64,000 nt of DNA from Candidatus Omnitrophota bacterium (GCA_035403965.1 DAONGE010000001.1:11475-75474), one strand, 5' to 3'; counted from the stretch's first letter, positions 3,383-62,382 are shown. Numbers and translations: made by a program. The notes: generated by a model from the letters alone, not told the origin.

Positions 3383-3423
3383 TCTACTATGTTGATAGGG
3401 ATTATAGTGAATAGGAGGCGAAG

Positions 3424-3864: not shown

Positions 3865-3966
3865 GAGAGAGAACAATGATAGGTATAATTTGTATAGATC
3901 GAATGTGATGAAGCATATCAATGATATGCAGAGTAAAGATATTTCTAATAAAAAATGGAGGAAAAA

Positions 3967-5259: not shown

Positions 5260-5263
5260 TCAA

Positions 5264-5330
5264 AAGTATCATGTGTCATGTGTCAGGGCGGCCGAAAAGG
5301 AACCCTTTTGTATCATGACACATGATACTT
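5264..5330. promoter_or_regulatory. 17-bp perfect inverted repeat (AAGTATCATGTGTCATG .. CATGACACATGATACTT) between metY and cysK; terminator or operator candidate
   Basis: Arms at 5264-5280 and 5314-5330 are exact reverse complements around a 33-nt loop. Positioned between two sulfur-metabolism genes and downstream of an Rrf2 regulator. Confidence 0.4.
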
Positions 5331-5361
5331 GATACATAAAAAAGGTACAAAGGAGGCAGCC

Positions 5362-6297: not shown

Positions 6298-6503
6298 AAT
6301 CAGAGGTAAGAGGACGGGATCTAGGAGGGAAATAATACTTTTGGTTCCGAGATGCCGTTCGTAAGCGCGTGAATCTGTCTAATATCCCACAAGATCGGGT
6401 TACTAACCAGTGCCTTGTTCCATATTTTTGAAGTACAGTGTATAATATCATTATTGGTAATATAATATGGAAAAGACGATCAAGTGACCACTTAAACTGA
6501 CCT

Positions 6504-39059: not shown

Positions 39060-39147
39060 ATGCCGGATCATATCCACGATATTATTTCGATCGTAGGGCG
39101 GGGTTTCCCCGCCCAGAATACGTCGGGCGCGGAGACCGCGCCCCTAT
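39060..39147 (+). repeat. ~90-bp duplicated fragment of the Y1 transposase gene (HuH-motif codons + REP-like double hairpin)
   Basis: 39060-39147 is ~95% identical to 39502-39590 (ATGCCGGATCATATCCACGRTATTATTTCGATCGTAGGG..CGTCGGGCGCGGAGACCGCGCCCCTA). No RBS precedes it. Confidence 0.6.
39093..39147. repeat. REP-like element copy 1 (two hairpins: GGGCGGGG-TTT-CCCCGCCC and GGGCGCG-GAGAC-CGCGCCC)
   Basis: Perfect 8-bp and 7-bp GC stems read directly from the sequence. Confidence 0.65.
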
Positions 39148-39263
39148 GTTTAAATTGTTTGTGTATTTTTTTGATGCCACCGTCCGCGGGAACGCAAAAT
39201 AAAATTATAAAAATTGAACGAATTTGTCCCCAAAATGTGTCTATAAATATAAGGGGAATTAAT

Positions 39264-39788
39264 ATGGGCGAACCAATATATCCGGCCTTGCGACGGAGGT
39301 ACTCGTTGCGATTGAAGGGGTATGATTATTCTTCAATTGGGACATATTATGTGACCATTTGCGTCAAAGATCGCGAGAATATTTTTGGTGAGATCAGAAG
39401 AGATAAAATTATTCTTAATGAGAATGGGATAATTGTACGTGATTATTGGAACGATCTTAAAAAACATTTTTTAAATATCAAAATTGGTTCTTTTGTTATT
39501 ATGCCGGATCATATCCACGGTATTATTTCGATCGTAGGGGCGGGGTTTCCCCGCCCTGAATACGTCGGGCGCGGAGACCGCGCCCCTACGTTGGGAGATA
39601 TTGTCGCGTATTTTAAATATGGAACGACGAGGGATATAAATTTTAACAAAAAAACACCAGGTATGCACTTATGGCAGCGAAATTATTATGAACATATAAT
39701 TCGTAATGAATCGGAATTAAATGAGGTCCGGGAATACATAATTAATAACCCTCTGAAATCTGAGATTTTTCTCGATAAATTTATGTAA
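39264..39788 (+). CDS. tnpA: IS200-like / REP-associated Y1 (HuH) transposase, with an in-frame REP-encoded insertion
   Basis: YYVTICVKDREN, HuH motif IMPDHIHGII, C-terminal LWQRNYYEHIIRNESEL..YIINNP with the catalytic Tyr. A 17-aa insertion GAGFPRPEYVGRGDRAP sits between the HuH motif and the next helix and is encoded exactly by the REP hairpins. AAGGGGA RBS precedes ATG 39264. Confidence 0.75.
   Translation: MGEPIYPALRRRYSLRLKGYDYSSIGTYYVTICVKDRENIFGEIRRDKIILNENGIIVRDYWNDLKKHFLNIKIGSFVIMPDHIHGIISIVGAGFPRPEYVGRGDRAPTLGDIVAYFKYGTTRDINFNKKTPGMHLWQRNYYEHIIRNESELNEVREYIINNPLKSEIFLDKFM
39534..39590. repeat. REP-like element copy 2, located in-frame inside the transposase CDS
   Basis: GTAGGGGCGGGGTTTCCCCGCCCTGAATACGTCGGGCGCGGAGACCGCGCCCCTACG. 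Confidence 0.65.
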
Positions 39789-40044: not shown

Positions 40045-43000
40045 ATGTTATTACAATATAATATGAAGCGAAGAAGACCGTTTTTCAGCCTGGTTTCGAT
40101 CGCTGTGATTTTTAGTATGCTCATGTCCGATATCTCGTTCGCGCAAGACGCGATTCGGGATACGCTCGCGCCAAGCCTTGCCACAAAACCGATATGCAAA
40201 GTAGAAAAGAACGACGACGGTACTTTTGATATAACCACGAACAATGATGTTATCGAATATTGGGAAAATAAGACAGAAGATGATCTTGATGCAAAATCCC
40301 CGTTCGCCAGTGCGTTCCGAGAAAAATGGGCCATACGCGATATAGGTATGGTTGTCGCGCAGGCGCTTGGTCTGAATATCCCGAGCGGTACCGTAAAAGA
40401 ATTGATCAAAAAACATTTCAAAAACAGGAACGCGGAAAATCAGCTTATCCTGGAAGGATATGAAATCGACGGTATCAAAGAAAAATATTGCGGTGAAGAA
40501 ATTTCAGAGTATTTTGTACCGGTAAACAGAAACAGAGAATTGGCATTCTATTTAAAATTTTATTTAAATGGAGAAAAGAAGGCCGCGCCGTTCTGTCAGA
40601 CAAAAACTGAAAAAGGCGAAATGAAGAATGTCTACATGGATGTAGTGACGATAGATGAGGTCCAGACATTTTTTGAAGAAAAGAACTCTCCGGATGTACG
40701 TGTCGGCAAGCGGGATATGTTCTTTGTCCCTGATTTTGCGCCGGGCGTAGCTTTAAGGACAGCTATCTCGCGTGATCTGGAGTACAGATGTGGCATGATC
40801 AAAAAGTTCATTGAGATAAACGAAAATATCGGCGGCGAAAATATTAATGCCGAGAAATATAAAGAGATGAGAGATTTTTTAATTACAGGGATCGGTCATA
40901 TACTTAAGGCCGCGGAAAATGAGAACAAAAATGACGAAATGTGGGAACAGGATATTCAACTCGAGTTGAGCGAGTTTAACAAAAATATGACGAATAAATC
41001 CCTGGAGGGATTGTGTCAGGGGATGGAGAAAAAGGTCTCTGATCGTTTGAAAGCGTCGATCCGTGCGCTCAGCATATTGTATAGCGGCTTAGCGGGCGAA
41101 AATCATTCACGTAGCGCCGATATTAAAGAGTTGACGGATGTGATTAAAACGATTGAAATGCCGTCAAGTTTTGTGGATGTGGTCTTAAATGTGGACGCCA
41201 AAGCCAGGAACGTGAATGTTAACGAAGGCGAAATGTTCCGTATACTTGAAAATATTTTTAGGAACGCGCTTGCCGCGCAGTTGGAGAAAGCGGCTAATAT
41301 ACGGGATGACGTGGAACGCGCGGCTTACAGGGCCGTAATAAATATTGACGCGGTGGTGGATAGCGGCGAAGTCGTGATTAAGATAAAGGATAACGGTCCG
41401 GGGTTGCCGGAAGACGCTGAAAAGGCGTTCAGAGAAGGAAAACCGTTCACGACACACACAACAGGCGGCGGGCGCGGTATGCGAGCCGCTAAATATCTTG
41501 TTGAAAAGAACGGGGGAAAGATCGATGTCTTGTCGGAACGGGGTGAAGGTACCACGTTCACTGTTCGCTTGCCTTTGGGAGAAGACCCCAGAGTAAGGGC
41601 CAGATTGTTACATGATTTCGCTAATTTAGTACAGGGGATAGAAGGGGAAACATATATATGTTCTGAAATAACCAAAGATCCGGAGATCTTTGAAAGTGTG
41701 GAAAAGTCTGTAAAGGGATGCCTGACACTGCGTGATCCGAATTTGGACATCAAGAAAACTTTGGAGAATATTTACAGGGGGATGAATGAAGAAGTAATGC
41801 GAAGCATGACTGAATCCATAGGAAAGTATCTAGCGGACAAAAATATTTCTACAAATGATAGAGAAGAACTGAGGCAAAGTTTTGAGAGCCTCATAACGCT
41901 TATAAAGGCTGTTAAAAGGATAGCCGGATTTTATAGCGGGTTAGATACGGGAAAACGTCTTGTCAGATTGAATGAGATCTTATTGAGTTATCCGAAAAGG
42001 AAAAGCGGTCAAAAGCTCACGACCGATCTGAACGCCGGTGACATTGAGATATTCACGGACGAATGCGCGCTCGATCAGGTCGCAACTAATCTTTACAGGA
42101 ATGCCTTACAAGCTTCTGATGCGAATAGGGAAAATCATATTTCGGTCGGGACATCTCTCAGTGGGGACGGGAAATATGTTTATTTTTCCATAGAAGACAC
42201 CGGCATTGGCATCCCGCCTGAAAATTTAAGAAAAATATTCGAAGCGGGTTTTACGACGAAAGAAGATGGACATGGATTTGGTCTGGATATCGTGAAGGAT
42301 CTTGTTGAGACCCGTCTTGGCGGGACGATAAAGATTGAATCCGAGGTGGGGAAAGGTACAAAATTCATGGTTTGTTTACCGCTCGATCAGGAGCAGGAAA
42401 AACCAGGACGTTTTAGCCGGAAAGATGTTGTCATTGATCTTTCGAATAAAGCCGATTCTGAAGAGAGGCTTCAGGCTTTGCGTGCGATGATAGAAGAAAG
42501 GGTTGGGTCAAGGCAAAATAAAATAGTGACCGGACAGGAAGCAGTTCGCGAAGCAGATTGGCTTTCCGGAAGATTATGGGAGATAGCGAATTGCTCGGAC
42601 GAGTGGTTCAAGAAAAGTATGCCTATGCATGCAGTCGATGTCGTGAATATAACAAAACAATCGGACAATAACGCGTCGCCGGAACTTTTGATAGCCTCGA
42701 TGTTCCATGACGCCGACAGGGCTTTTGACGGATATTTTGTTCATCTAAAAGATATGCCGCCGTATGATAGCCCGTTGTATTCCGAATATCTTAAGCCGAT
42801 ACTTCACCCGCGAATGGCGGATGAGGTGATCCGGCCTTTGCTTGATCTTTTGGGGATAGAAAAAAATCTAGCCGATAAAGTGTCCATCCTGATACGGAAC
42901 CATGAGACCGGTATAAATGGAAATTCTTTGGATAAAGATAATCCGCTAGTTACGGAAGAACTTATCACAGATTCGGAAAAGCTTAAAAATGCCGACGCGA

Positions 43001-46000
43001 TAGCCGTATTGACCCCGTTTATGTTGATGGTCAGGTTTAATGAGGCAGATAGACGAGGGAAGATGGAAGAGTTTTATTTTGAAGTGAAACAGAAATATTC
43101 GCGTTGTTCTGATCAAGGGCGCGGCATAATAGATGGCCTTATAGAAGAAGGGAAAAAAGAATACGAGAACGATCCAACGTGGAGCGAAGTGTACGCAATA
43201 TTTTTGCGAGTTAAAGACGAAACCAGAGAAGAGGTTAAATTTGATATAGATAAAGATATCGAGCTATACGCTTTTGATTATGAGGAAACACTCGCCAAAA
43301 CAAAAAGCAAAATGTCGGATGAAATGCTGGCAGAGATTATTAAGAGGCTGGAAGCCGGCAGAAGATTCGCGGTGATAACAGGAGTTAACATATATTTTCT
43401 TCACAAGTATTTTGGGCAATACATTCCGAAAGAAATCAGAAAAAAATACAGAAAACAAATTATTTTTATGGGAGAACTCGGAACCGAGGTTGGCAGATAC
43501 GATGAAAACGGCGAATTATATCTGGACGAAAAGAACAGCGTGTCTTTAAGGCCGGAAATTAAAACCGGGATTGCCGGTGAAGTGTACAAGGCCTTGGAAA
43601 AACACGGCCTTGCAAATATTTCGGGGATATCGACAAGATTTAAAAAAGATACAGATCCTGCCGAATATCCAGCGGGGAAGTCGATAGAGATCGGGCTTGA
43701 AAAATACGGTACCGCCGTTGTGCGTTTTTGGGATAAGACATTACGCGGGCGCATGAAAGACATTGTGGAGGATCTTCGGGATGTGCTCGATAAAATGGGT
43801 TTAAAGGTAGCTGCGTCGAATTCCGCCATAGATATTTCCCCGATGGATAAAGGCGAGGCGCTTGATAAACTACGTGCGATCATCAAAGAGGAATCCGGAA
43901 AGGATATAGCGTACGAAAATATTCTTGTAGGCGGGGACAGTCAGAATGATTACGCGATGCTCGCGAAGCCGGGAGTAAAAGCCGTTTATTTCGGCAATTC
44001 CAAAAAAGCGGAGCTGCCGGAAGAGGTCGCAAAAAATGTATATATGTCCGAAACAAAAGGGCCGGAAGGGCTGGTTGGGTTATTCAGCGTCGGGATTTTT
44101 AATAATGTTAGAGAAGACCGGAAAACGCAAGAAAACTTATCGTTCGATGCAGTGAGGTCTTGGGAATGGGAACGGTTGATGTATGAATTCAGGGAAATGT
44201 TCGCGCAACACCGTGTAAGAGATTTTAACAGAAACCTTTTACGATATAGACAAGCCGTCGAGATGTACAATGCGGAATACGATCAGGGTGTTTACGAGGA
44301 TATGCTTCACAAGGGGAAAGGGCTTCGAGATGATGACAAGGAAATGGAGACAGCGCTTGAGCAAAAATACTTAGAAGATCTCTCTAAACTTCTTTCCTGC
44401 GCATTGCGGCGCGATGATAGCGATAATGTCGCAGAGTATCTTGCTGCTTTGATAAAAAGCGAAAAGGCGTCTTTACTGTCAGACGAGGCCAAGCTGTTCA
44501 TTAGATCGTTTCTTACCATATACTCGATGTCGCCCGAGAGAGGGAAAAAAGTCGGTGTTGTCATATCAATGTTCAACGAACAGAAACGGATGGGAAAAGA
44601 GGATTTCGTCAGAAAAAAGATCGAACAGATGGAAGAATTATTTGCCGTGAATCCGGGGCTTGATTGGGAGATGGTCTTTGTGGAAGACGGTGAGGAAAGA
44701 TCAAACGGTGAAAGTAAGAGCTCGGGTGAAATGGCGCTTGAAATACTTAGAAGTGAATATCAAAACCTGTTGGATTCAGGCAAAGTAAAAGTACTGTTTC
44801 TGAACAAAAAGATCAAAGATAATATCAGGGGAAGAAAAGGAAGTGGCATTATATACGGTCTTCGCAAGGCGCTGGACGACGGCGCGGATTATCTTGTCTA
44901 TACCGACGCTGATATTTCTTCACATCTTGGCCAAACCGGTATTTTGCTTGATCCGCTTGTTAAAGGTGACGCGCAGGTTACGATAGCATCACGGAGGATA
45001 AACGGCGACATAGTATTTAACCGTTCGCGCGGCGAGAAGATCAAAAGTATGGTCTACAATATCTTTGTTCGTTTGATACTTGGATTAAAAATAACAGATT
45101 CACAGACCGGATTCAAGGCTTTTACGCGGGAAGCACTTGAAAAAAGTCTTCCGCTTAAGGTGTTCCCGCCCGAAGGGTCGGACGGAAAAGAGTTTGAGGG
45201 AAATTTTGTTTACAATTTTTCATTCGATACCAATCTTCTTTGCCGTATAGACGATGTATTTTCGGATAGCGAAGAGACTGTTATCGCAGAAGTTCCCATA
45301 GTGTGGATAGGATCAAGGGAAGAAAGTACGGTCAGGCTTAAAGATGTTTTAATTATGCTTAGAGGTCTTTTTGAACAGTGGCGCATAAGGAATAGAACCG
45401 TTCAGATAGTGTCCAGTGATGAAGTGTCCCAGAAAGGCAATTACAAACTTCTGGCTATTTTAAAAGGAGACGAGATCGGGAAGTTGGAATATTCTCCCGA
45501 TATTAATGATGCGAATACCGTATGGCTTGGATGGATAGGGGTGGAGAATAAGAGGCATTCTGTGGGAGAACTGCTGATGCGGCGCTTTTTCGCGGAGTGC
45601 CGGGCAATGAAAAAAAACAAGGTTAAGTTATGGTGTGACAAAAACAATACATCGGCTGTCGTGTTTTATGAAGAAATATCCGAACGGCTTAACATCCCGA
45701 TGGAGATCAACGATGAAATAAGCAACGCCTTTCATCTGATAACTTACACGATTGGGGATGTTTATAAACTGTCCGGCCTTAACTCGGGTGCCGCTACGTC
45801 CGAGGTTCAGAAAGTAGAGGATCAAGGGGACAACGTTTTTAACCGTACGGGAAATGGTCTTATTTTTATCGGTGGCGCAACGTTAGCGGGCAATATTTTT
45901 CTTGGAGTTTTCGCGTATTTATATTTATCTGCACAGAAACAGGCGATAGTGGATTTTCTGTATGAGAAGAGCCGTGTGAAGAAATGGTACGCGAAACCCT

Positions 46001-49000
46001 GTCATTATTTATCCCGCTTTTTTGATATGGTTCTTTTAGATGTGGCCCGCTGTATCGCAATACTTGATAGAAAAGAAACTGTAAGTGTAAAGCTCGATAG
46101 TGCTGTTTCGGACGAACATAAAATGACATTGATGGCTTATTCGGGGAAAGAAAAGGCCGGGACTCTTAAATTTTCTCAGTCGAGTCATGCGCCAAATACA
46201 ATGTCCCTTGAGTGGTTGAACGTGACATATAAAAAGCAGGGTAAAGGCGTCGGAACGGCTCTTATGACGGAGTTTTTTAAAATCTGTTATAAATTGAAAA
46301 AGAAAAGAATAATACTGTGTTGCAAAAAGGATAACACGGGGGCAATAGCGTTTTATTACGAAATGGCCAGGCGATTCAACGCGAGAATTGATAAAAAAGA
46401 CATTACCATTAACGATGAGTACTATTTGATCGAGTATACATTTGATGACAGTAATAGAGCAATGCCTGCTTTTATTTGCCTTGGCGGCGCCATGACTTTT
46501 TGGAGCGATGTTTTTATAGCGGGGCTTGTATATTTATGGTTCTCCGCCCAGAAACAGGCGATAGCGGATTTTCTCTATGAAAAAAGCCGTATGAAGAAAT
46601 GGTACTCAAGTATTGCCCGCCATTTAGCCCGCTTTTTCGACATTGTCCTTTTAGACATGACGCAATACGCCGCTACAAGATACCTCGCCAAATCTTTGCT
46701 TATGGGGCCGGGGCTGACGATAAAGCCAATAGATAATGGAACCGTAGGTGCGCTCTCAATATCAGGAACGCCTGATGACGATATTGTGTATGTGCCGGAA
46801 AAATATAGAGAAAAACTCGCGGAAAAGGATATTTATCCGCAACGATATAGACATGTATTTATGGGGATGATCGATAGATTAAAATTAAATGACAATGAAA
46901 TAAATGAGCTTAAGAGTACGCTGGCGACGGTGGCGGGTAATATGCGCATATATAAAGATCCAATGGGAAGAATAGATATGATAATAGACGTGCTGAAAGA
47001 GAATAATATAGACGCAAATGGGGGAAGTGAACTCAAGAAACAATATCTGATAGTGGTGTATAGCATAGCTAGGCATGGGAAGAAAGGGAAAGTAGCGTTA
47101 GATGGGGTTATAAGATCGTTTAATGGAGCTGGAATAAAATATCAGGATATGACGGAAGAGCTTAAGATACAATATCTAACAGCGGTGTATGAGATAGCGA
47201 TGAAAGGCGAGAAAGGGAAAGAAGCGTTAGACGGTGTTATAAAATCGTTTAAGGGAGAAAGAATCGTTTACAAGGAGTTAACGGAAGAACTCAAGAAAAA
47301 ATATCTGATAGCGGTGTATAAGATAGCGATGAAAGGGGAGGAAGGGGAAAAAGCGTTAGGTGGAGTTATAGAATCGTTTAAGGAAGAGGGAATAGTATAT
47401 AAGGAATTAGAAACGGAAGAACTTAAGAAAACATATCTGATAGCGGTGTATGAGATAGCGAGGAAAGGGAAGGAAGGAAAAGACGCGTTAGACGGGGTTA
47501 TAGGATCGTTTAAGGGAGAAGGAATAGTGTATAAGGAGTTAACTAAAGACCTTAAAAAACAATATCTAACAGCGGTGTATAACATAGCGATGAAAGGGGA
47601 GGGGAATAAAAAGACGAAGGAAGATGGAGAAGAGGAAACAGTGTTAGACGGAGTTATAAAATCGTTTAAAAAGGAAGGTGGAATAGTATATAAGGAATTA
47701 GAAACGGAAGAACTCAAGAAACAATATCTGATAGCGATATATGAGATAGCGAGGAAAGGCCAATACGCGGTTGAGAACGTGGGGACGATAATAGATCTTC
47801 TTCGAGGGGAAGGTATTGAGTATAAAACCATGCGAAGGGATTCCGAGAAAAAAAGATATTTACGCTCTGTATACGTTCAGGCGCTTAAAAAAGGCAAAGA
47901 ATACGATGACGAATTTATCTTATATGTTATGAAAGGTTTTTGGGAATTGTACAGCGCAGAAAGGGAGCCGGCGGTTTTCGAGAGTATTGCAGCCAGTGGT
48001 AAAAAGTGGCGTGAGGTTGTTGATGCAGGAACGCCGAGAAGCATAGCCAAATCCACGGAATGGAAGGAAAGAGTAAAAACTGTATTAAATACCTTATCTG
48101 ATAGAGAGAGGGAGATAGCGGAAGCGTTGATGGAAACGGGATCGGCTGAAGATGCTGCAATAAAAGGATTTGACAGGAAAGAAATAGAAAAGGTAATGGA
48201 AAAACTCAGAGTAGCTTTTGCTGATATGAAAAATAAGCCAACGAGTTCCGCGTCCGCGGTTCTTTTAATGGGTGGTTCAACGTTAGCGGGCAATATTTTT
48301 CTTGGAGTTTTCGCGTATTTATATTTATCCGCCCAAAAACAGGCAATAGTGGATTTTCTGTATGAAAAAAGCCGTATGAAAAAATGGTATGCAGGTGTCG
48401 CCCGCCATTTAGCCCGCTTTTTTGATTTTATTCTTTTAGACATGACACGATACGCCGCTACAAGATACCTCGCTAAATCTTTGCTTATGGGCCCGGGGCT
48501 TACGATAAAAAAAACTGGTTCAGATGGGGACAGGTCTGGGATTGATTCCGGGACAGATCTGAGAGGGGAAACGGGGACAGGTCTGGGATCAGATTTGGAA
48601 ACGTCCCGTGATGTTGTCTTTGGTCTTGGAGAGGTAAGGCTGGCCTCGCTGGATGACGCATGGGTGATAGTGCAGCTTAAGCGCCTAATATCTGAAATGC
48701 CTTACGGTAGAGACTATAGGAGTATTATATATGATATGAGGGAAAGAAGATCGAATGACCGTATTTTTGTGTTTAAGGATAACTCCGGAGAAGTCGTCGG
48801 TTTTATTGAGGGAAGGTTTTTTCTTAATGCAAAGTCATGTTACATAGCAAACCTGGCGGTGCGCGAAGATATGCAGAAACGCGGAATAGGAAGGATTTTG
48901 TTCAATACGTTTCTTGATGAAATGTTGGATCTTGGTATAACTTCGGCTTCCGTGGCCGCGCGAAACGATGCGACCGCAAAGTTTGCGCTTGAGAGAGGTT

Positions 49001-52000
49001 TAAAATGTGAGGAATATTACAAGGGTTCGGATATACAAGGATATTATGTTGGGGATATTAATAAAGGCAATAAAGTCGGACAATATTTTAGTAAATCCCC
49101 GGCTTTTATTTTTGCCGGAGGATCAGCCTTGGCCGTAAATATTTTTAGCGGGGTATTCACATATCTTTATCTATCCGCACAAAAACAGGCGATAGTGGAT
49201 TTTCTTTATGAAAAAAGCCGTATGAAAAAATGGTATGCAGGTGTCGCCCGCCATTTAGCCCGCTTTTTTGATTCTATTCTTTTAGACATGACACGATACG
49301 CCGCCACAAGATACCTGGCCCAATCTTTGCTTATGTCGCCGGGGCTGACGATAAGACAAGTTGGTTCAGATGGGGACAGGTCTGAAAGGGAAATCGGGGA
49401 CAGGTCTGGGATTGATTCCGGGACAGGTCTAAGAGGGAAACCGGGGACAGGTCTGAGATCAGATTTGGAAACGTCCCGTGAGAGTGTTAATTGTGGTAGC
49501 GGATTCTTGGATTATGTTAAGGCGGATAATTTGGAGAGTGTTTTTTCGTACATGGGCGGATTAAAAAGTGCATCGAATATCGGGATAGATAGATTGATGT
49601 CCCGTTTAAGGTCTCCGTTTGCGAATATTAACGGAATTCTTAAAGAATACGCTGTCCAGGATGATCTGGCCGGCTCGCCTGAAGCATTAAAAACCCTTCT
49701 TGAAAAAATAAAGGAGCTGGACGAAATAACAAAAAAAGCGATGGAGGGTGTGTCTCCACACGAAATCAGGGTTAATGCTCAAAATGCTTTTGACGAACAG
49801 ACTGAAAAATATAAACGCATTCTTTATCCCGATACCGGAGAGTTGCCGATCCTTTTAAACGAAATACAGGCAATACTTTCAAAGTTTAATAATGAGCATG
49901 TCAGCGAATTAAAGGGTGAGATAGGGGGTGTACTTGAAAAATATGATGAGGTTTTTGGTGAAGAATCCGGGATATATACTCCGATTTCGGGTGTCATGCA
50001 TATGGAGTGGTGGCAAAAAGTTGCGCCGCATTTGTTACGCGGACAAGAGAATACAATATGGAAAGTCAGGGAAAGTTTTGGGAATGTTGCGGCAAGCGCC
50101 ATACTTGCCGAATTGAAATTGGCAGCGGGGTATAAACACGCAAAATTTACTGACAATGATAACGTTTTTAACATGAAAAATGCCACGCATCCTACAATGC
50201 GGTTTAAATCCGGATTTACCCCGGTCTCTTTTAAGGTCTCGAAATCAAAAAAGGTAACAATTATCAGCGGCTTAAATTCCGGCGGGAAAAGCGTAACCGT
50301 AAAAGCAGCCGGGATTATCGCTTTAATGGTTCAGGCGGGGATGCCCGTTCCGGCGGATGTTGAAATGGATAAAATGTTGTTTGGGGGTTTTAAAAAAGCC
50401 GAAGTAAAAGACGAAGATGTTTCCACAGGGCAGGGATCCAACATGTTGGCGGAGCTGGATGAAACTAAAAAACTTATGAACACGGTAAAACCAAATGAAT
50501 TTATTATTATCGACGATGATATTTTTGGCGGCAGCAGCGAACCGACTGTTGTTGCTTCGTGTTTCAATGCTTTTATGGAAAAGCTTGGTGCCTCGGGCGC
50601 GGTGGTGGTAGGGATAACGCATCATTTAGACGCGTTGCGGGCTTTAAAGAAAGAACATCCGGATGATTTCAATTTTTTATGTGTCAAAACCCGGCCCGGT
50701 AAAGACGGAGAGGAAGAGTCAGAATATGAATTGCAGGAAGGCATAGCCGACTCCAGCCAGGGATTGATCGAGGCGATCAGGATGAAATGGCCCGCTTCTA
50801 AACTTGCCATAAAATATTTCAATAAATTACGCGAGTGGAAAAATGAACCTGCGGTGGTTTGCAACAATATGCCGGCGCTAAAACCGGCGCCTTTAAGGCA
50901 AAGGGGATATTTTTGTTCAAGCGTCGAAAGGGACTTTTTACAACTTACTGATTTTTCCGGAAAATTAAGAAATACAGCCGTTTCTATTATGGGAGAGATA
51001 GCCGGCGATGTCTCCGGAGATTTTGTTGAGGATATTTATGCCAATCCGGAAACGGCTAATAGTAGTGAATGGAGGGAAGCTATAGAACTTTTGCGTACCA
51101 ATCCCGATGTTTTAGATAAGTTTACGTCTTTATTGAAAGAAAATTATAGAAGATGGCCGCAAAACATAAAATTTGAAGAGAGAATCCACAGATATATTAA
51201 TCCCGACAGCGATAAGATGACGCGCGAATTTTTACGATTGATAGCATTTTGCCGCACCAGCGGGATCACGATGCTGGAAAAAAGTGCCGGACGGATCAAC
51301 AGTTTTCTTTATGGTGATTTTAAAAGTGAAATAGTGAAATGGGTAAAAGCATGTGAAGAGATGATCAAATTGACCGAAAAAGAGGTTGGGAAGGAAAATG
51401 TAAAGTTTCGTTTGGGCGTTGATTTTATCGAAATGGTGAACGGGATGAACCGGATTATCGAAAAAGAGGATGAGTTTAATGAGCTTATGACAGGCCTTCT
51501 TTTTGAATATCAGTTTGAGGAAGGATCGGATTTAAATAAGATAAAGAACTTATTTGTTCAATCATTGAAAGAAAATCATGGTAGCGGTTATCTTTTCATG
51601 CAGGCTCGTACAATAAATAATATGATGGAAGAAAAAAACACGGGGCGTAAGTTTATCGAGAAGTTACAGACCAACGGGTTAAATGCGAGATTCCTGAGCA
51701 TCGATAAAGGGTTGATAACCAGAAAAGATGATAGGTCTCAAATAATGGTACAGTTTTGCAGAGATATGTCTGCCATGTGTACCCTGCGTGCGATGGTAGA
51801 TGTAGATGAAAATTGGCCATTCGCGAAAAAAGGCACAGAGGGAGAGATACGGATAAAAGGCGGATGGCATACAAGTCTTGAGGAAGATCCAAACAGGACC
51901 CCGAATAATGTCGATATTTCCGCATACGGCAAAAAGGGATCGCTTTCTATTTACACGGGTTTTAATACGGGAGGAAAAAGCACACTTGCAAAGATGATTG

Positions 52001-55000
52001 CGCAGATTGTGACACACGCTAAAATCGGATGGCCCGTGCCGGCCGAATATGCATCGATTGGAGATTTTTCTGATATACAGGTTGTTTCGGAATTGCTGAC
52101 GGATATAAAGGAAGAACAACGACAACGTAACGGAAAAGATGAGATCGGCGGCGCGCTTGATAGGGCGCTTCATCAAAGTTCGATGATAATACAGAACGCT
52201 ACGCCGAAAAGCCTGATCATTCTTGATGAACCGTTTTCCGGTTCTACCGAGCCTGAAGTGGCTGAGGCTCTTACCGCGGCTTTGGCTCAATCGCTGGTTG
52301 ATAGAGGCGCTACTGTAATACTTATTACGCATCTATTGGACACTATACCGGTTTTGGAAGGGGAAGTGGCAGGGACTCAGGTATTTCGCGCAAAAACTTT
52401 TGAGAAAGATGGGGCGTTATATCCGCGTTTTTCTTTTGAGCCCGGGATTGCGGTGTCGAGTCATGGATTTGAAGTGGCGAGAAAAATAGATTGGCCGGGG
52501 TATTCAAGGGCGCTTGAATATTTTAATGTTTTGAATAAAGAGGAAATGCAAAGAGAACGATCGCCGCGCGATCGGTCCGGTGCGGCAAGGGCGATCTTTC
52601 AGGAGCCTCGGGATTCGAAATATGATGGAATGAAAGGAAGAGAAATAAAAAGCGCGGAAAAGGACAGACGAAAACAGCTCAAGGAAGCAGAAAAAAAACG
52701 GTTATCCTCCGGGGAAGGAAATAAAAACGCCCCGGCGATTTTATATTTTGGCGCATCGACCTTAGAGCTAAATATCTTCACGGGTATTTTTTCATACACA
52801 GGGGCCGTACAACACGCTGAGAAGGTTTCCCATATAGACTTTCGGGACGATTACGGTGAATCATTACGTCGTCTTTGGAATTTTGGACCAAAAGGTGTAC
52901 CAACGGAAGAGTCCGTTTTAAGGCGCTTAGTTGTAAATTTAGCGTATGAGATGATTGTAGAACAGATACGTGCATTTGTGAAGACCAAGTATCCGGGTGC
53001 CGATATTGACAAGTTAGGTGTAAACGTCATGCTTTTTGGCAGCAGCGCTAAAGGATTATCGATAGAGACAAGCGATATTGATTTCGGTCTTTTCATAGAC
53101 GACACCGAGCTCGGAAGTGGCATAAAAGTAGATCCCGGATATAAATCAGCACTCGTGAAGATAGCTGTTTCTGCTTTGAATGAAGTTATAGATAAAAATG
53201 GGTTCAATGTTAAAAGGTTCAGTGTACAGTTAAAGAGGGTCAATGCCAGGGCCAATGATGTTATTATCGCCAGTCATATGCTTTCACGAGAATTTGGACA
53301 CAGAATATTCAGGGATTTAGCGAATATATTCTATATAAACTTTGGACCAATTGAAATCATGAGAAAAAAAGCTTTGCAAATAGTAATGAATTCCGCTAAC
53401 CCCGAAAAGACGTGGGAGAACGTGTGCAAATGGTGGAGTGGATATGCCAAAGTTATTGGCAATAAACACGAGTTAAGGGTTTCTTTAGACGAGATTGTGG
53501 AGGAATCTTTGCTTATATCTTTGCCGGACTTGAAAACAATGTGCAGTATCTACAATATAGAATATAGGTTACCAGCCGTTTCTGTCCAAGAGACTGAGAA
53601 AGGTGATATTTCTATAACTTATCCGGGTAAAGGCCTCAAAGTGCCACCATCGGATAAAGCGCCGGCGGTTCTTCTGATGGGTGGTTCGACGTTGGTGGGA
53701 AATATCTTTCTGGGAGTTTTCGCGTATTTATATTTATCCGCGCAAAAAGACTCGATAGTGGATTTTCTTTATGAAAAAAGCCGTATGAAAAAATGGTATG
53801 CAGGTGTCGCCCGCCATTTAGCCCGCTTTTTCGATTCTATTTTATTAGACATGACGCAATCCGCCGCTACAAGATACCTCGCCAACTCCCTGCTTATGGG
53901 GCCGGGGCTGACGATAAAGCCAATAGATAATGAACCCGTAGAGGCGATCTCAATATCGGGAAAGCCTGATGACGGGAAAGATATTGTATATGTGCCGGAA
54001 AAATATAGAGAAAAACTCGCGGAAAGAGATATCTATCCGCAACGATACAGACAGGTATTTAAGGGAATGATCGATAGATTAAAATTAAATGACAATGAAA
54101 TAAATGAGCTTAAGAGTACACTGGCGACAGTGGCGGGTACTATGTGCATATATAAAGATCCAATGGGAAGAATAGATATGATAATAGACGTATTGAAAGA
54201 GAATAATATCGACGAAAATGGGGGAAGTGAACTCAAGAAAAAATATCTGATAGCGGTGTACATGATAGCGAAGAAAGGGAAGGAAGGAAAAGAAGCGTTA
54301 GATGTGGTTATAGGATCGTTTAATGGAGCTGGAATAAAATATCAGGATATGACGGAAGAGCTTAAGAAACAATATCTGATAGCTGTGTACGAGATAGCGA
54401 TGAAAGGGAAAGAAGCGTTAGACGGTGTTATAAAATCGTTTAGGGGGGAGAGAATAGTGTACAAGGAGTTAACGGAAGAACTCAAGAAACAATATCTGAT
54501 AGCTGTGTACATGATAGCAAGGAAAGGGAAGGAAGGAAAAGACGCGTTAGACGGTGTTATAGAATTGTTTAAGAGAGAGGGAATAGTGTATAAGGAGTTA
54601 ACGGAAGAACTCAAGAAACAATATCTGATAGCGTTGTACGCGATAGCGAGGAAAGGGAAGGAAGGAAAAGACGCGCTAGACGGTGTTATACGATTGTTTA
54701 AGGAAGAGGGAATAGAATATAGCGAATTAACGGAAGACCTTAAGAAACAATATCTAATAGTGGTGTATGAGATCGCGATGAAAGGTCGATATGCGGTTGA
54801 GAATGTAGGAAAGATAATAGAGCTTCTTCGCGGGGAAGGTATTGAGTATAAAAATATGCAAAGGGATGCCGAGAAGAAAAACTATTTACGCGCTGTATAT
54901 GTTCAGGCGCTTAAAAAAGGCAAAGAATACGATGACGAATTTATATTATATATTTCGAAATATTTTTGGGAACTGTCCGGACATGAAAGAAAACCGGAGG

Positions 55001-58000
55001 TTCTCACGAGTGTCACGGAAACTGGTATCAAGTTGTTCAAAATGGTTGCCCCGGAAACTCCCAGAAGCATAGCCGAGTTTATGGAACTGACGGAAAGAGT
55101 TAAAAAGGCATTGGGTGGTTTGTCTGATGAAGAAAGAGAGATAGCGAAAGAATTGATGAACACGGGATCGGCTGAAGATGCTGCAATAAAAGGATTTGAC
55201 AGGAAAGAAATAGAAAAGGTAATGGAAAAACTCAGAGTAGCTTTTGCCGACATGAGAAATGGAACAAGAGGTTCCGCGCCCGCGGTTCTTCTGATAGGTG
55301 GTTCGACGTTGATGAAAGCAGGAGAAGCGCCTGATAAAGAAAAAAGCCTCGTAGGCATTGATCCGACTTGGGATAAAGAAAAGACAATAAAATATTTAGA
55401 ATCCCTGATTCAGAAAACGGAATTAGAAGAAAAAGACATAGAATTTCTAAAGACCTTAACGGAATTTTTACAATGTAAGGATAATAGCCTGATTAGTTTT
55501 ATAAATCAGAATGGACGACTGGACATAGCGGCGAATATTGATTCAATAAACGTTTTAAAATATTTGGTTATAAATTTTGACCCAACTGTTTTTGATGTGT
55601 CGCAGTCTGAAGAAATGTCAAGGCGTTATAAAGAAATAGCCCGACATATGTCTACTGGAGCGTATGAGCATCAGTTGTCACATTGCCAGAGGACTTTTGA
55701 GGTGCTAAAGGAGCTGTGGAGCAGTCTGGAGAAAAAGGGAATAAAAAACACAGAACTTGAAAATCTTGTTGCGGCGGGCAGAAATATCGAAGCAGATTTT
55801 ATGTTGCTTAGACATGCTCTTGGAAATTATGAATATTTCAAAGATGGGATCTTGTCCATATGGATCATAAATCTTGCAAGACGGGAGATTTATAGGATAT
55901 TCAAATTTAATCAGGAGGCTTTAGAATTTTTAAGGAAGTATTTGAACGAAGGAGAACAATACGATGATCGGGATGAGGGGGAGTGGGAAAAATACTTTAT
56001 AAGTTTTGCTGAATTTGGGCTGGGTGAAGCCGCAGGTTTTATTCTAGACATAGATCAGTGGAAGAAACAAGGGTTGGATTCTTATTTAGGGAAAAGTACT
56101 ATAGGAGATCTAGTTAGTTTATTTGAATCCGCTGTAATTAAAAAAGCCGGTCATGATTTTAAATTTTCATCCTATGAGGAAACGGATATCAATGAGCTTG
56201 ATACAGTTGGTATATCTATAACAGACCTGGAATATGTGGCAGAAAATCTTGCTGATAACTCTTGCGGGGCCAAGGACACATCGAGACCATTTAAGATAAA
56301 TTTAAAATTTTCAAATGAGATACGTAATAGACAAAAATATGTTCGCATTGAATTTACAGATACCGGAAAAGGTATGGCACCAGAAGTTTTAGCCAGCGTG
56401 AGATCGGGCGGAGGTTTTACGACAAAAGGTGCTTTTGGACATGGCAAGGGTATTCCTATAGTCTTTGAGATAATAAAGAATGGCGGAGGTTTTTTAGAGA
56501 TCGAATCTGAAGAAGGCAAAGGAACAACTTTTATAATAGGTATCCCGATAACAGTTTCATATGGGACTGTTTTAGGAGAGACAGGAGTAACCGGGACACT
56601 TCCCGCTTCAGATCCGGAAACGTCCCAAGGTGGAAAAACTGCTTCTGCGGTTATTTTTGCGGGTGGGTCGACATTAATCGGAAATATTTTTATCGCTCTT
56701 TACAGCTATTTGTATTTATCCGTTCAAAAAGACGCAATAGTGGATTTTCTTTATGAAAAAAGCCGGATGAAGAAATGGTATTCAGGTCTTGCCCGCCATT
56801 TAGCCCGCTTTTTTGATTTTATTCTTTTAGACATGACGCAATCCGCCGCCACAAGATACCTTGCCAAATCTTTGCTTATGGGCCCGGGGCTTACGATACG
56901 GCCGGTAGAACCAGATGTGGACAGGTCTGAGAGGGAAAACGGGGACAGGTCTGGGATTGATTCCGGGACAGGTCTGGGATCAGATTTGGAAACGTCCCCA
57001 TATGTACCCGGGGCTGTCCCCAAAGTGCCAAGCTTTATGTTAAGCGCGAGAGACATTTTTGAAAGTATTTCGCGGATGAGGGACGATATCACGGATGCCG
57101 CGATGATTGATGAGATCGGAGTAAAAGAAGGCGACAGGATTTTATGCGTTGGGATAGGGTCGTATTGTAATTGTCCGGTTGCCGGGGCGATAAAAGGCGC
57201 CAATGTGGATATTGTTCAGCCGTCTTCATATGAAGGGGTCGAACAGACCCGCGAGCTAATAAAAGCGATAGATATTCTGAGACAGAAGATAATTTCCAAA
57301 TATGGAACGGATCTTATCGGGGAGAGGATCGATACCGAAAGTTATCGAGGCATGGCCGAAGAAGTTGATCTCCATAATAGGACTTATACTGTCGCGATAC
57401 TCCCAAATATTCTGGATGACCCGGCGCGGTCTAAAAATAAGCAAAGCGCAAAATTAAGGGACGTTATATTGAACTCTCTTAGTGACGAAGCCACTATCTT
57501 AATTTCCGTGTTAGGCGGACGGACGGACGAATACGCGTTCGCTTTTGCGGATTACGCCAGAGGTAAAGGATACAAAGTTGAAGTGGGAAGCAAATATACT
57601 TCGGATAATGTTTACAGGGTTCTAAAAGTGACAAGGGTAAATGCGGAATTAGAAAAAGAGAAGGGACCGGAAGTAAGCCTTGAGCGCGAGAGAAAACTAA
57701 AACGCATAACGCGGTTGGTCGAAAATTATTTCGACGATTGGGCAAAGAGTGAATGGCGCGAAATTTTAGATATATTGAATTATTTGGGAGAAAAGGGATC
57801 CATAAGCCCGTCTCAGAAAGAGGAGATATTCGAGAAAATAAAAGTGTTGGTCGAGAATATTTTCAGCCCAAACAAGATTCCGAGAGAATTCTTTGATTAT
57901 GAGGGAGAGGAAAACGTTGCTAAACTTATTGATTTCATGATGAACATAAAAGATGAACATCTCGGAAGCTTAAGATCCTTAAGGGAAGACCTTGTAAAGA

Positions 58001-61000
58001 TCATTCCTCACGATCATATGCTTGTTTCGTCGCTGGACGGATTGATTGAGAAAGTTGAAAAATTATTTAATGAAGTCGAATCCGTGCGTAAGGAAATATT
58101 CTTATCAGGTATGCCTTCCGAAGGGGGACCGTACAATAAAGCCCCGGCTATTTTTTCCCTGGGCGCATCGACCTTAGCGGGAAACATCTTTCTGGGAGTT
58201 TTTACGTACTTATATTTATCCGCCCAGAAACAGGCGATAGTGGATTTTCTGTATGAAAAAAGCCGGATGAAAAAATGGTATTCAGGTCTTGCCCGCCATT
58301 TAGCCCGCTTTTTCGATTCGATTCTTTTAGACATGACACGATACGCTGCCACAAGATACCTTGCGAAATCCCTGCTTAACGGTCCGGCGGATATGATACG
58401 GCCGGTTGACGGGCCGTTATTCCCCGGGTTCCCTGATGGGGAAAAAGGCAGAAATTATCAAGGGATAGATGTAATTGCCCGGTTACAGATCCTTGCCGGA
58501 GGCAATGATAGTGAGGGGCTGGTAAGAGAGTTGAATAAAATCGGGCCTGACAGGGTGCGTAATCTTATGGGTTCCGGGGATACGTCAAGATCCACCGGTT
58601 TTATGATACTTATGGCGCAGATATGTGAGATCTTGGTGAAGAGTGGCGATTTGACTCGGCTGAATAATGAAGTACGGCGTATCGTTGAACAAAAAGAACG
58701 CGACTTCGCAAGGGACGCAATAGTTGTTTCATTAGAAAGAGCGTCGGAAAAGCAATCGGCTACTTATTCGGATCCCCGCCGATCGGCGCGGCGTGACGGC
58801 AAAACCAGTGTGACGCGGCGAACTCAAGGCGAAGGAGAGAGCTCTTCACCGCCTGCGGCACCTCGCGATGACTTGGGATCGGGAGCGTCCCCGGGTGATG
58901 CGGAACGGGAAGAGTTTTTGAGAAAAAATAATTCCGCGTTTTCCCAGATGATGGATGTATTAGATGATTATCACCATGAACGGAGCATAACCAGATATTT
59001 TCTTGCAGGTAGCATGTCCCGCGGGACTTTTGGTGTTCCGCCGAAAGATATGGATATAGCGGTTTCCTTCAGGCTATCCCGTCAGGCGGAAGAAGTGGAT
59101 GTATATCAACGTCTTTACGAAGAAATCGAAACTATCTCGAAAGAGACAGGTATAAGTTTTCATATTATTCCTTTACCGATAGGCCATGTGTTCAATATAA
59201 CGGACAATTCGATAGAACCTACCGGGGAAGTCCTGGGGGGGAGTTATCGTCCGGCTATGGCATCATTGATAAACCCCGTGGATTATAGACTTATTGAAAT
59301 AAGCCGTGCGTACAGAGAAACGGCCGGAGCCGATTTCTTTGCGCAATTATTCTTAAAAATTAAAACATATAATGAAAATGTCCCTCGCGATGACGATCGT
59401 GCCACCCAAGGCGCGGCTGAGAAAAATATCAATGGTTCAGAAACGCTGTTCCCCGGCGCCGGCCCCGGAGCGGCGAGCCTTAACGGCCCGGAATTCACAC
59501 GTAAAATAAAAGTCAGGGCGCCGCGATTTTTGGCGGGGTGGACCAGAGGCCGCGTGGAAAAGGCCATAACTACAGGCCTTACCTATGATGAAGCCGTAGC
59601 GTGGCGTGAATGGAAGTTACGAACGAATAAACGTTTTCCATCGGGGTTCTGGCAATCGAGACAGACAGTTATTAATTACACGCTGGCTACGTTGGATAGT
59701 ATCTCGGGGTTTAAACAGGCAAGGGAGAGCGGCGATATCTCCACAACGGCCAAATTGTTGCGTTCGGAATTAAAAAGATACAATCTTGGTTATAAGAAAT
59801 TTTTCGTAGAGCGTGGGCGGATGAACGCTTTACTGGATAATAATTACGATGGGATACTTTCCGAACCTAATAGGGTATCATCGCTTATCGGACTTGCCGT
59901 GCCGGGACTGATAGATATGAAAAATAAGGACGCGATAAGTCCTGTCGAAGTAGAACCTAATTATTGGGAAAATGAGGAAAACGCCAGATATCATATCCTT
60001 GCGGCTTTGGATAACGGTGTGCCGGGTTTTGCCGATGCCCGCGCCAGACACGATATTAAAGCTATGGCGGGGTTATATCGTGAATATGTTATGGGATATG
60101 GATCAAAAACCGGAAAATATGATGACGGTCAGGTCGCGTTCTTTTGCGAAGTGGGAGAGCTTTTAGGGCTTATAAGCCATGAGAGAAAATATCTGGATAA
60201 AAAGGGAAGCCCGGCGGCTGTTTTACGTTTTGCCATACCGGAGCTTGTTGATCAGAACGATCCCGACGCCATAAGGTTGACTGACGTCGAAAGAAAAGTC
60301 GCGGTAGTGGGTTCTGACAGGAAATATGAAGAAAAATTGATGGAGTATATAATCAAACATTCGGTGGATGGTCGTAGCGGGAAAGAATTATACGAGAATA
60401 ATCCCATGTTAAGTTCCCAGCTTAGTTATGAAGAACGCGCGGATATTTACCGGGCTATACTTTCACGGGATACGCTGAAGCCGTGGGAATGGGCGGCTTG
60501 CGCGTATATATGGTGTTGTGAAGCCAGGGACAGGTTCTTGGCTTCAGACATACTGGAAAACCCGTTAACTATCGAAGAATGTCATGGCGATAAAAAAGTG
60601 AACAAGGTGATACATGATCTTATATTCAACCATAAATTTCGGATAGACTCCGGGAATACTGAGACCCTATTTGGCGTGTTATTCTCCTCGTCTTTAAGAG
60701 TGCATAATATGCCCGAAGGGGTTGGGCCGGACGTCGTATACGCCAATATTCAAAGGGCAAGGGGTTTGGTCCAGGGAGAGAGCGATCATATCATGGATTT
60801 GCGGGCGTATGCCGGATCACATCTATGGTTCACGTCCCCGGCTATGTTGGATCTTTTTTATGGAGCGGATGGGATAGGTGGAGAGGCATATGCGAACGCC
60901 AGGACTATTATCCCCAGAGAGATATTCACCCCTGAGCTTATGGCGCGCTTCAATGAGATATACGCATCGTGTATTTATCGGATCGAAATGCTGAACGGTA

Positions 61001-62326: not shown

Positions 62327-62382
62327 TTAATACTTTAAAAAGTAAGTAAAAAATTGACAGATACTAACCAAACGAGGGATCA

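Follow-up and report, generated by a model that had tools for sequence, protein, structure and literature searches.

We analysed a 64,000-nucleotide stretch of DNA from a Candidatus Omnitrophota bacterium (GCA_035403965.1 DAONGE010000001.1:11475-75474), referred to below as the window. A sequence-only reading of the window had singled out positions 41190-56560 as coding for an unusual set of ATPase and nucleotidyltransferase domains in one polypeptide. This range lies inside a single uninterrupted open reading frame (ORF) at 40045-62208 on the plus strand, and it corresponds to residues ~382-5506, the central two-thirds, of a product of 7,387 amino acids (7,387 codons) that we call p2. Most probably, p2 is a modular, membrane-punctuated multi-enzyme giant of the Omnitrophota. 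The giant multi-enzyme architecture is already known; what is new here is a conserved separator of ~90 amino acids that divides the chain into cassettes. The chain is modular, its joints are conserved, hydrophobic and under selection, and its cargo has been swapped and duplicated together with the joints. The domain mixture of p2 reflects the accretion and shuffling of cassettes, not one coherent nucleic-acid pathway.

The Pfam search of p2 was run on ten overlapping pieces of the protein. p2 is organized as beads on a string, with a signal-peptide-like N-terminus and a conserved N-domain, a succession of unrelated cassettes and a conserved C-terminal domain. The cassettes comprise two degenerate histidine-kinase cores, a HAD domain, a glycosyltransferase of family 2 (GT2), three GNATs, two duplicated helical-repeat modules, tandem MutS2-like ABC ATPases, a third GHKL domain, two minimal nucleotidyltransferases (NTases), segments without a detectable family and an HPr-like domain. 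Most of the cassette boundaries carry the ~90-residue separator. The ends and the separators of p2 are located in the window as follows; p1 is the sister giant encoded upstream and P0003 is a relative of 3,229 amino acids, both described below.

40063..40656 (+): signal-peptide-like N-terminal segment MKRRRPFFSLVSIAVIFSMLMSDISFAQ (Kyte-Doolittle 1.89) and conserved N-domain with the TLAPSLATKP motif
45847..46059 (+): separator copy 1, truncated, with the hydrophobic helix and the first amphipathic helices and without the G-L-T-I-K end
46462..46734 (+): separator copy 2, full
48247..48519 (+): separator copy 3, full, then a G/S/D/R-rich spacer
49093..49365 (+): separator copy 4, full, then a G/S/D/R-rich spacer
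52726..52824 (+): degenerate separator, hydrophobic part only
53656..53928 (+): separator copy 5, full
56638..56910 (+): separator copy 6, full, then a G/S/D/R-rich spacer
58138..58410 (+): separator copy 7, full
61534..62205 (+): conserved C-terminal domain, common to p1 and P0003 (36% identity to the P0003 C-terminus)

Each separator opens with a hydrophobic helix of ~25 residues ending in Y-L-Y-L-S, continues through three amphipathic helices (..AIVDFLYEKS...LLDMTRYAATRYLAKSL..) and closes with G-L-T-I-K/R, followed by a flexible spacer. The consensus of the p2 copies is xAPAVLLMGGSTLAGNIFLGVFAYLYLSAQKQAIVDFLYEKSRMKKWYAGVARHLARFFDSILLDMTRYAATRYLAKSLLMGPGLTIK. p2 contains six full copies (amino acids 2140, 2735, 3017, 4538, 5532 and 6032) and three partial ones, namely a 3'-truncated copy at amino acid 1935, a degenerate copy at 4228 and a 13-residue stub at 5077. 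The separators lie between recognisable domains in both p1 and p2, and cassette and separator have been duplicated together within p2. The hydropathy of the first ~25 residues lies in the transmembrane (TM) range (Kyte-Doolittle 1.65-1.95 over a 19-residue span), and the N-terminal segment and seven internal helices of p2 score at least 1.6. An AlphaFold2 (AF2) model built from 18 family copies is all-helical, with the hydrophobic helix, the three amphipathic helices and a disordered tail. Across the family, the Tyr at the helix end is near-invariant, as are L71, T80 and, within the terminal G-x-x-I-K/R, G92 and I95. A low-complexity spacer rich in G, S, D and R (..GSDGDRSGIDSGTGLRG..GTGLGSDLETSR..) is common to three separators (~48520-48620, ~49366-49490 and ~56911-57000), and segments of the P-I-D-N/P-V-E-P type follow the remaining ones.

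The separators of p2 are old and under purifying selection at the peptide level, because their pairwise synonymous divergence (dS) is 0.43-0.82 and the ratio of nonsynonymous to synonymous divergence (dN/dS) is 0.15-0.39. In the 60 amino acids after the helix, dN is 0.08, dS 0.41 and dN/dS 0.20, with no excess of conservation at the nucleotide level, where the copies are 72-88% identical. We propose that the separators would keep the cassettes at the cytoplasmic membrane in the form of a tethered array. Each separator would then be a selectable unit, and it may double as a joint for the duplication and exchange of cassettes.

When 1.84 billion cluster representatives were searched exhaustively with HMMER, the separator profile matched only 10 clusters, which are p1, p2 and eight others. 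Every named member of the family comes from an Omnitrophota metagenome-assembled genome (MAG), including that of Ca. Tantalella remota. PGAP names the members by their cargo (Fic, fructosamine kinase, alpha-glucan phosphorylase and UPF0489), and Pfam identifies HATPase_c and TPR in P0006 and GNAT in P0007. P0003 has an N-domain and a C-terminal domain of the p2 type (38% and 36% identity; the former over amino acids 16-204 of p2), two cassettes of p1 and both separator subtypes in one copy each. Homology also links the C-terminal domain of p1 to that of p2 (25% identity, E 4e-6). A likeness between the N-terminal regions of p1 and p2, seen by eye, was rejected as unsupported by BLAST. The picture suggested by these comparisons is of a small family in which a fixed frame would hold shuffled cargo, with the separator as the joint. 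Scans with the separator profile A1 returned no relative in the GTDB species representatives, a word-indexed set of 5.8 billion proteins, the JGI contigs (there also with profile A4) or IMG/VR; these scans rely on exact words or short degenerate patterns and missed p2 itself, so that their negatives carry little weight and the HMMER search is the informative one. Four segments of p2 (amino acids 36-240, 5625-6035, 6480-7030 and 7141-7387) have no significant Pfam or NCBIfam match, and the second of these has no significant match in the PDB.

The sister giant p1 is laid out like p2: its N-terminus resembles a signal peptide, separators punctuate the chain, and the C-terminal domain is the one that it has in common with p2. 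The p1 separators are of a short form (..LALYAGLLIYSELYKHRKAIIDFIHSKGYLRLEKGVRILLPDLSKYRVT..SL.N.SIGLTIK).

18998..38977 (+): p1, 6,659 amino acids, directly upstream of p2, with four short-form separators
23798-24067, 25142-25417, 28766-29041 and 31328-31567: the short-form separators of p1

The cargo of p1 consists of a PALP enzyme, long TPR arrays, two kinase-like segments, an ATP-grasp domain, a GNAT, a YbaK-type aminoacyl-tRNA editing domain and a weak NTase. Amino acids 540-640 of p1 (20615-20917) form three to four hydrophobic helices, with HEIGH inside a helix and N-Y-F-V-H-I-F-A-D-G ~50 residues later. This HEIGH...N-x7-DG spacing is that of HExxH...Nx7DG in the site-2 (M50) intramembrane metalloproteases.

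The separator also occurs on its own. P0008 is a complete protein of 91 amino acids that consists of the separator only (hhalign against the short-form alignment: 98.5% probability, E 1.6e-15). It is encoded on a 31.8-kb Logan contig (SRR21359020_0, here L091). The remaining genes of this contig fall into 90%-identity clusters with Thermodesulfovibrionales proteins. The start of P0008 shares 4 nt (ATGA) with the stop of an upstream 92-amino-acid gene of the minimal nucleotidyltransferase (MNT) type (NTP_transf_2), and the pair (L091 3625-4175) lies between Phd/YefM-ParE and a second ParE in a toxin-antitoxin island. In MNT-HEPN systems (MntA-HepT) the slot beside the MNT gene belongs to HepT; on L091 it is occupied by P0008, a homologue of the separator and not of HEPN. 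No tblastn match to P0008 was found in the PLSDB plasmids. The idea that the order of NTase and separator in p2 is a fused copy of this pair was rejected, as the MNT on L091 shows no similarity to the p2 NTases. Because P0008 is a free-standing separator of 91 residues, it appears that the separator can exist as an autonomous small membrane protein, which is a lead and not an explanation. The pair hints that the separator began as, or can revert to, such a protein.

ORFs longer than 20 kb occur in most Omnitrophota classes, and a protein of V. archaeovorus with 39,678 amino acids has 42 predicted TM helices (Seymour et al., PMC10066038). The 'Archaeovorins' have many TM helices, and their 20 most frequent domains include HATPase_c and HAD_2 (West-Roberts et al., bioRxiv 10.1101/2023.11.21.568195). 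A 2026 preprint defined a 'multi-enzyme' class, reported TM helices or a signal peptide in 94% of 916 long proteins and described the largest Pfam co-occurrence module ('Module 1') as methyltransferase, HATPase_c, GNAT, HAD and HD (bioRxiv 10.64898/2026.06.07.730766). The published surveys of Omnitrophota giants describe the topology predictions as implausible and suspect cleavage, for which they name no sites (bioRxiv 10.1101/2023.11.21.568195, 10.64898/2026.06.07.730766). p2 shares with these proteins the phylum, one polypeptide tiled with many unrelated Pfam domains, and a signal peptide with hydrophobic helices about every 400-1,000 residues. It also shares the co-occurrence of HATPase_c, GNAT and HAD (joined by HD and methyltransferase in the published module), a glycosyltransferase, divergent domains, large segments without a detectable family and the same questions of topology and cleavage. 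The sequence-only reading had called the domain combination of p2 unprecedented. This does not hold, as HATPase_c, GNAT, HAD, HD and methyltransferase make up the largest module of Omnitrophota long proteins (10.64898/2026.06.07.730766). MutS_V, NTP_transf_2 and HPr are unmentioned in the main text of both preprints; the word 'linker' is absent from the main text of both, and 'motif' and 'spacer' from that of the 2026 one. p2 differs from the published giants in that its helices sit in a sequence-conserved family of ~90-residue separators and its terminal domains are conserved. It also has no dockerin, and GT2 is the only item of the Archaeovorin cargo list that is present.

Several points weigh against p2 as a membrane-punctuated giant of this kind. 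With 7,387 amino acids it is under the cut-offs of the 2026 preprint (at least 10 thousand amino acids) and of West-Roberts et al. (>30 thousand), hence outside both catalogues, and it is without the SecA_DEAD, C39/S8 peptidase, NUDIX and glycoside-hydrolase domains that define Archaeovorins (Pfam E<=0.1). The AF2 model of the separator is moderate only (pLDDT 65), and hydropathy is the sole basis of the transmembrane call for the separator helices. All 18 separator helices that were compared are richer in K+R on the C-terminal side (mean 4.6 versus 2.2; net charge +2.5 versus -0.4; 20-residue flanks). Therefore, by the positive-inside rule, all of the helices should prefer an N-out/C-in orientation; however, consecutive single-span helices in an uncut chain cannot all be N-out/C-in. 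In addition, a true N-terminal signal peptide would place the first 1,900 amino acids, with domains that depend on ATP, UDP-sugar and acetyl-CoA, outside the cell. Because p2 is below the length thresholds and without the SecA_DEAD, C39/S8 and NUDIX hallmarks, we file it as a small member of the Omnitrophota multi-enzyme kind and not as an Archaeovorin. Three versions of this assignment are compatible with the data: an intact tether whose topology is non-canonical, a polyprotein that is cleaved at its separators, and an exported multi-effector chain. The uncut tether takes the remainder once the other two have been given their shares, of which processing has the larger minor part and effector export the smaller.

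In the polyprotein version, the chain would be cut at or near the separators, either after G-L-T-I-K/R or before the small-x-small/Pro residues ahead of the helix, to yield single-pass anchored enzymes. We consider this possible and hold it tentatively. The charge asymmetry and the preferred orientation are the same in all separators, which only independently inserted units satisfy. The G-x-x-I-K/R end is near-invariant and is followed by a disordered or low-complexity spacer; this conservation could equally be that of a structural cap. The free-standing P0008 suggests that a separator can work autonomously, and p1 has its membrane-embedded HEIGH...N-x7-DG with the site-2-protease-like spacing. 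Cleavage of Omnitrophota giants was already suspected, without candidate cleavage points, by West-Roberts et al. (bioRxiv 10.1101/2023.11.21.568195). However, profiles identify no protease domain in p1 or p2, and the p1 motif has no Pfam, NCBIfam or PDB support; a role of this motif as the processing protease for the separators is possible as a hint only. Cleavage by signal peptidase I at the small-x-small residues was rejected, as Pro is frequent at -1 or -2 ahead of the helix in the consensus of the family. In a more specific form of the proposal, which we regard as rather doubtful, the separator would be an Omnitrophota-specific parsing signal, insertion unit and processing site in one, and the 22-kb gene would give rise to about ten anchored enzymes. 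If true, this would supply the missing cleavage points for the Omnitrophota giants.

MARTX toxins of Vibrio and relatives are very large polypeptides whose conserved ends enclose a variable, shuffled array of effectors that are released as separate units. By a similar logic, p2 might be exported and its cassettes might act on or in a host or prey cell, with the separators aiding insertion or translocation. p2 resembles MARTX in being a very large chain with conserved ends and variable, shuffled cargo. Conserved N- and C-terminal domains around variable cargo and a signal-peptide-like N-terminus are in keeping with such a role, and GNAT, NTase, kinase-like and (in a relative) Fic domains are common effector chemistries. 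Ultra-small, host-dependent or predatory lifestyles have been proposed for many Omnitrophota lineages, and the giants have been proposed to act on target cells (bioRxiv 10.1101/2023.11.21.568195; PMC10066038). However, Pfam finds no secretion-system, RTX, CPD (Peptidase_C80) or adhesin domain in p2, the 64-kb window contains no secretion genes, and this organism has no known host. p2 also differs from MARTX in lacking RTX repeats, a cysteine protease domain and a type I secretion signal (Pfam), and its joints are hydrophobic-helix modules and not Leu-X cleavage sites. On balance, we consider export of p2 as a multi-effector chain unlikely.

The domains that had drawn attention to p2 were its three histidine-kinase-type ATPases.

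40867..41589 (+): histidine-kinase-like core 1, DHp-like helices and HATPase_c (amino acids ~390-511)
41752..42399 (+): histidine-kinase-like core 2, DHp hairpin and HATPase_c (amino acids 672-781)
56221..56550 (+): HATPase_c 3 (amino acids 5393-5502; 52 bits, E 1.1e-13), with an upstream helical region without an assignable H-box

Pfam and alignment confirm three HATPase_c domains in which the residues of the N, G1 and G2 (ATP-lid) boxes are intact; those of cores 1 and 2 together score 149.5 bits (E 5.9e-44, two stretches). The sequence-only reading had also stated that no His-containing dimerisation domain lies nearby, and in one sense this stands, as no HisKA-type profile matches upstream of any of the three domains (Pfam). 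What does not stand is the inference that the domains are not of the kinase type; a DHp hairpin is present in the model of core 2. This AF2 model (amino acids 500-790, from an alignment of 47 related kinases) has a mean pLDDT of 75.6, with >90 in the CA domain, ahead of which a helical hairpin is packed (model residues 70-98 and 104-131). Foldseek matches the model best to whole DHp-CA structures (ZraS, WalK/YycG, HK853, CckA, EnvZ chimeras and DivL) with E-values of 1e-15 to 1e-12 over 240-280 aligned columns. The closest relatives of the same segment among 951 matches are ordinary NtrB/PAS-type sensor kinases that carry HisKA, and phmmer alignments to the PDB extend from the CA domain back into DHp helix 2. 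The GHKL domains are thus not the unusual, non-kinase-type class that had been supposed.

When the 47 kinases are aligned with core 2, the near-invariant H-box His column corresponds to Glu582 of p2 (in the string G-M-N-E-E), ~100 residues ahead of the N-box, which is the canonical H-box spacing. Core 1 (amino acids 312-521) is a paralogue of core 2 with 29% identity and has His285 (T-G-I-G-H-I-L) in the H-box column by a forced profile alignment that is of low confidence there. The segment LLHDFANLVQGI (amino acids 520-531) was considered as a CckA-type H-box and acceptor and was rejected: it lies 163 residues before the N-box versus ~100-125 in the canonical arrangement, in a low-confidence helix outside the DHp hairpin. 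No Response_reg domain is found in p2 (Pfam). The three GHKLs are degenerate DHp-CA histidine-kinase cores. We read at least one of them, from the Glu at its acceptor position, as probably unable to autophosphorylate on His. Most likely, the three units are not kinases of a two-component phospho-relay and would work as ATP-binding pseudo-kinase or ATPase modules. The nearest parallel is DivL of Caulobacter (PDB 4q20; Foldseek match to the core 2 model E 6.5e-13), which likewise has a DHp-CA fold and intact ATP-lid motifs and no phospho-acceptor His. Core 2 differs from it in having Glu where DivL has Tyr, in lacking a sensor domain and, within the chain, a response regulator as partner, and in being embedded in a giant multi-cassette protein.

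Elsewhere in the window, a hybrid sensor kinase of 1,777 amino acids (6504-11837, +) has multiple PAS, HisKA (56.6 bits), HATPase_c, REC and Hpt domains and is followed by a small response-regulator gene. It serves as an internal control, in which HisKA is readily detected where present.

The remaining cassettes of p2 are as follows.

42592..43044 (+): segment previously read as 'HD' (amino acids ~850-1000), with the string H...HD only
43168..44070 (+): HAD phosphatase-like domain (amino acids ~1042-1342; S6PP 28.9 bits, cutoff 20.3; Hydrolase_3 22.3 bits, cutoff 20.9)
44557..45144 (+): GT2 domain (Pfam 35.9 bits)
45448..45675 (+): GNAT a (amino acids 1802-1877; 16.2 bits, sub-threshold), a paralogue of GNAT b
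46099..46359 (+): GNAT b (amino acids 2019-2105; 42 bits)
46795..48246 (+): helical-repeat module A, 42-43-residue repeats and an HTH-like tail
48703..48996 (+): GNAT c (amino acids 2887-2984; 48.1 bits)
50089..50775 (+): MutS domain-V-like ABC ATPase A (amino acids 3349-3577), Walker A GLNSGGKS and degenerate Walker B IIDDD
51817..52506 (+): MutS domain-V-like ABC ATPase B (amino acids 3925-4154), Walker A GFNTGGKS, Walker B ILDEP and TH motif
52960..53106 (+): minimal nucleotidyltransferase 1 (amino acids 4306-4354, NTP_transf_2 core; PF01909 27 bits when scanned alone, cutoff 21)
53995..55311 (+): helical-repeat module B, a duplicate of module A (67-84% identical), ending in the 13-residue separator stub SAPAVLLIGGSTL
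58984..59178 (+): nucleotidyltransferase 2 (amino acids 6314-6378; 18.6 bits, below the 21-bit cutoff), outside the flagged range
61180..61398 (+): HPr-like segment (amino acids 7046-7118; PF00381 22.4 bits versus a 23-bit cutoff)

The two MutS domain-V ATPases were correctly recognized. MutS_V (PF00488) matches p2 twice (103.7 bits, E 1.6e-29, two stretches), and the best phmmer matches of the units in the PDB are MutS2 9kce (E 4e-16) and Taq MutS 1ewr (E 4.5e-12). The two units are 29% identical. Both are without recognisable mismatch-binding or clamp domains, as had been noted: no Pfam match to MutS_I to MutS_IV or Smr occurs in p2 at E<=0.1, and helical regions of ~220-330 amino acids precede each ATPase. 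They thus have the Walker A, Walker B and TH motifs of MutS/MutS2 and differ in having no domain I, clamp or Smr nuclease, in standing in tandem in one chain, and in the DD for DE in the Walker B of copy A. Because ABC ATPases work as dimers and the pair is in tandem in one chain, the two domains would most likely form an intramolecular ABC dimer, plausibly an asymmetric one.

The GT2, the three GNATs, the two helical-repeat modules and the separator were absent from the earlier inventory. GNAT a and GNAT b are paralogous (amino acids 1802-2005 versus 2029-2210, 37% identity). The helical-repeat modules are 430-480 amino acids long, with repeats (..ELKKQYLIAVYEIARKGKEGKDALDGVI.SFK.EGIVYKELTE..) and an HTH-like end LSDREREIAEALMETGSAEDAAIKGF that resembles sigma-70 region 4 with an NCBIfam match of just 14 bits; no family, including those of NCBIfam, could be assigned to the modules. 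Modules A and B are ~79-87% identical at the DNA level. The coding strand over the modules (46001-48000 and 54001-56000) has a GC skew of 0.34-0.37 and an AT skew of 0.19-0.23, versus 0.1-0.26 in other parts; the strong skew probably reflects a composition rich in Lys, Glu and Gly. The HAD domain, which had been recognized before, is supported by S6PP and Hydrolase_3 above their cutoffs. Its motif I (~43168-43190, amino acids ~1042-1050) reads F-D-Y-E-E-T versus D-x-D-x-T, so that the nucleophile Asp is kept and the acid/base Asp+2 is Glu. The HPr-like segment matches Thermoanaerobacter HPr (PDB 3le5, E 1.3e-3), with GLHVRP over the His15 loop, and PGAP independently labelled a p2 fragment 'HPr family phosphocarrier protein'. 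The active-site His of the proposed HPr domain is therefore kept and its Pfam score is borderline; the regulatory position did not hold up, Ser46 of HPr (AKSI) being replaced by Pro in p2 (ARPL).

The sequence-only reading had interpreted GHKL and MutS-like ATPases, HD and NTases of the MNT/HEPN type in one polypeptide as a toolkit for nucleic acids or nucleotides akin to defence systems, which is now largely refuted and which we consider highly improbable. In other settings, MutS2-type ATPases and Pol-beta-type NTases are indeed active on nucleic acids, and within a toxin-antitoxin island the gene for P0008 follows immediately on one for an MNT-type NTase. However, the HD domain is unsupported, with no Pfam match at E<=5, no PDB match at E<=10 and no homologue in the set of 5.8 billion proteins. 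Instead of three MNT nucleotidyltransferases, p2 holds only two G[SG]...DxD sites, the second of which is weak and outside 41190-56560. The NTases have the minimal Pol-beta-type NTP_transf_2 core (GS...DxD) of MNT-HEPN (MntA-HepT) and differ from that system in not being part of a two-gene operon and in having no HEPN partner: neither Rx4-6H within amino acids 4250-4540 or 6200-6600 nor a HEPN profile was found. PADLOC returned only sub-significant P-loop matches on p2. The GHKLs are of the histidine-kinase type, not of the MutL/GyrB/MORC type. The same chain has GT2, HAD, three GNATs, an HPr-like domain and repeat modules, and relatives with the same frame carry metabolic cargo (glucan phosphorylase, fructosamine kinase). 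The domain mixture of p2 is ordinary for the Omnitrophota, which is a corrective to the toolkit interpretation.

p2 corresponds to NCBI HPS19383.1 (the record begins at p2 amino acid 7) and p1 to HPS19381.1, both labelled Candidatus Omnitrophota bacterium. CarB of the window is 76-77% identical to its counterparts in two Candidatus Omnitrophota MAGs, and no other match exceeds 72%. Six contigs, each from a different sample (NCBI, JGI and ENA), carry the locus of p1, an IS200-like ORF and p2 with 99.98-100% identity where they overlap, over up to 20.7 kb (window 29060-49788). The shared 20.7 kb takes in the junction of p1 and p2 together with 9.7 kb at the start of p2, and the assemblies come from different pipelines and samples. 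CarB look-ups gave an additional 171-kb JGI contig and a Logan contig, and the full ORF of 7,387 amino acids was recovered on contigs of 171-209 kb. Domain matches are in frame along the entire 22-kb frame of p2, which has zero stop codons. The p2 gene is real and not an assembly chimera, because the near-identical locus is found in independent assemblies and the full ORF on 171-209-kb contigs. That p2 is a chimeric assembly across repeats, or a decayed pseudogene fusion not translated as one protein, can practically be dismissed: the DNA identity of the separators (72-88%) and repeat modules (~79-87%) could in principle confuse assemblers, but the locus is identical in independent assemblies, the full ORF stands on long contigs, 22 kb pass without a stop codon and the separator paralogues are under purifying selection.

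The remaining window is ordinary chromosome, with genes for MgtE, O-acetylhomoserine sulfhydrylase, cysteine synthase, the hybrid kinase, CarB, photolyase and an MprF C-terminal-like protein; Rfam and tRNA scans of the 64 kb were empty. A 242-amino-acid ORF (39060-39788, +) lies between p1 and p2 and has the same place in all six assemblies, and its C-terminal 50 residues are weakly similar to Y1 transposases of the IS200 type (30.3 bits, E 5e-7). Another ORF (62382-64000, +) starts 174 nt after p2, has a signal-peptide-like N-terminus and runs off the window after at least 539 amino acids. BLAST similarity of this ORF to p1, p2 or their relatives was not found; its product may be another large protein of the array, the third, and either secreted or membrane-bound.

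Giant multi-enzyme proteins are a hallmark of the Omnitrophota. p2 is small enough for experiments, and its joints are conserved, under purifying selection and common to a tiny family. The separators provide defined boundaries, at which N-terminomics peptides may be sought and topology-reporter junctions placed, and a profile with which larger giants may be parsed. The separator turns the question of whether and where the giant proteins of the Omnitrophota are processed into specific, testable sites.

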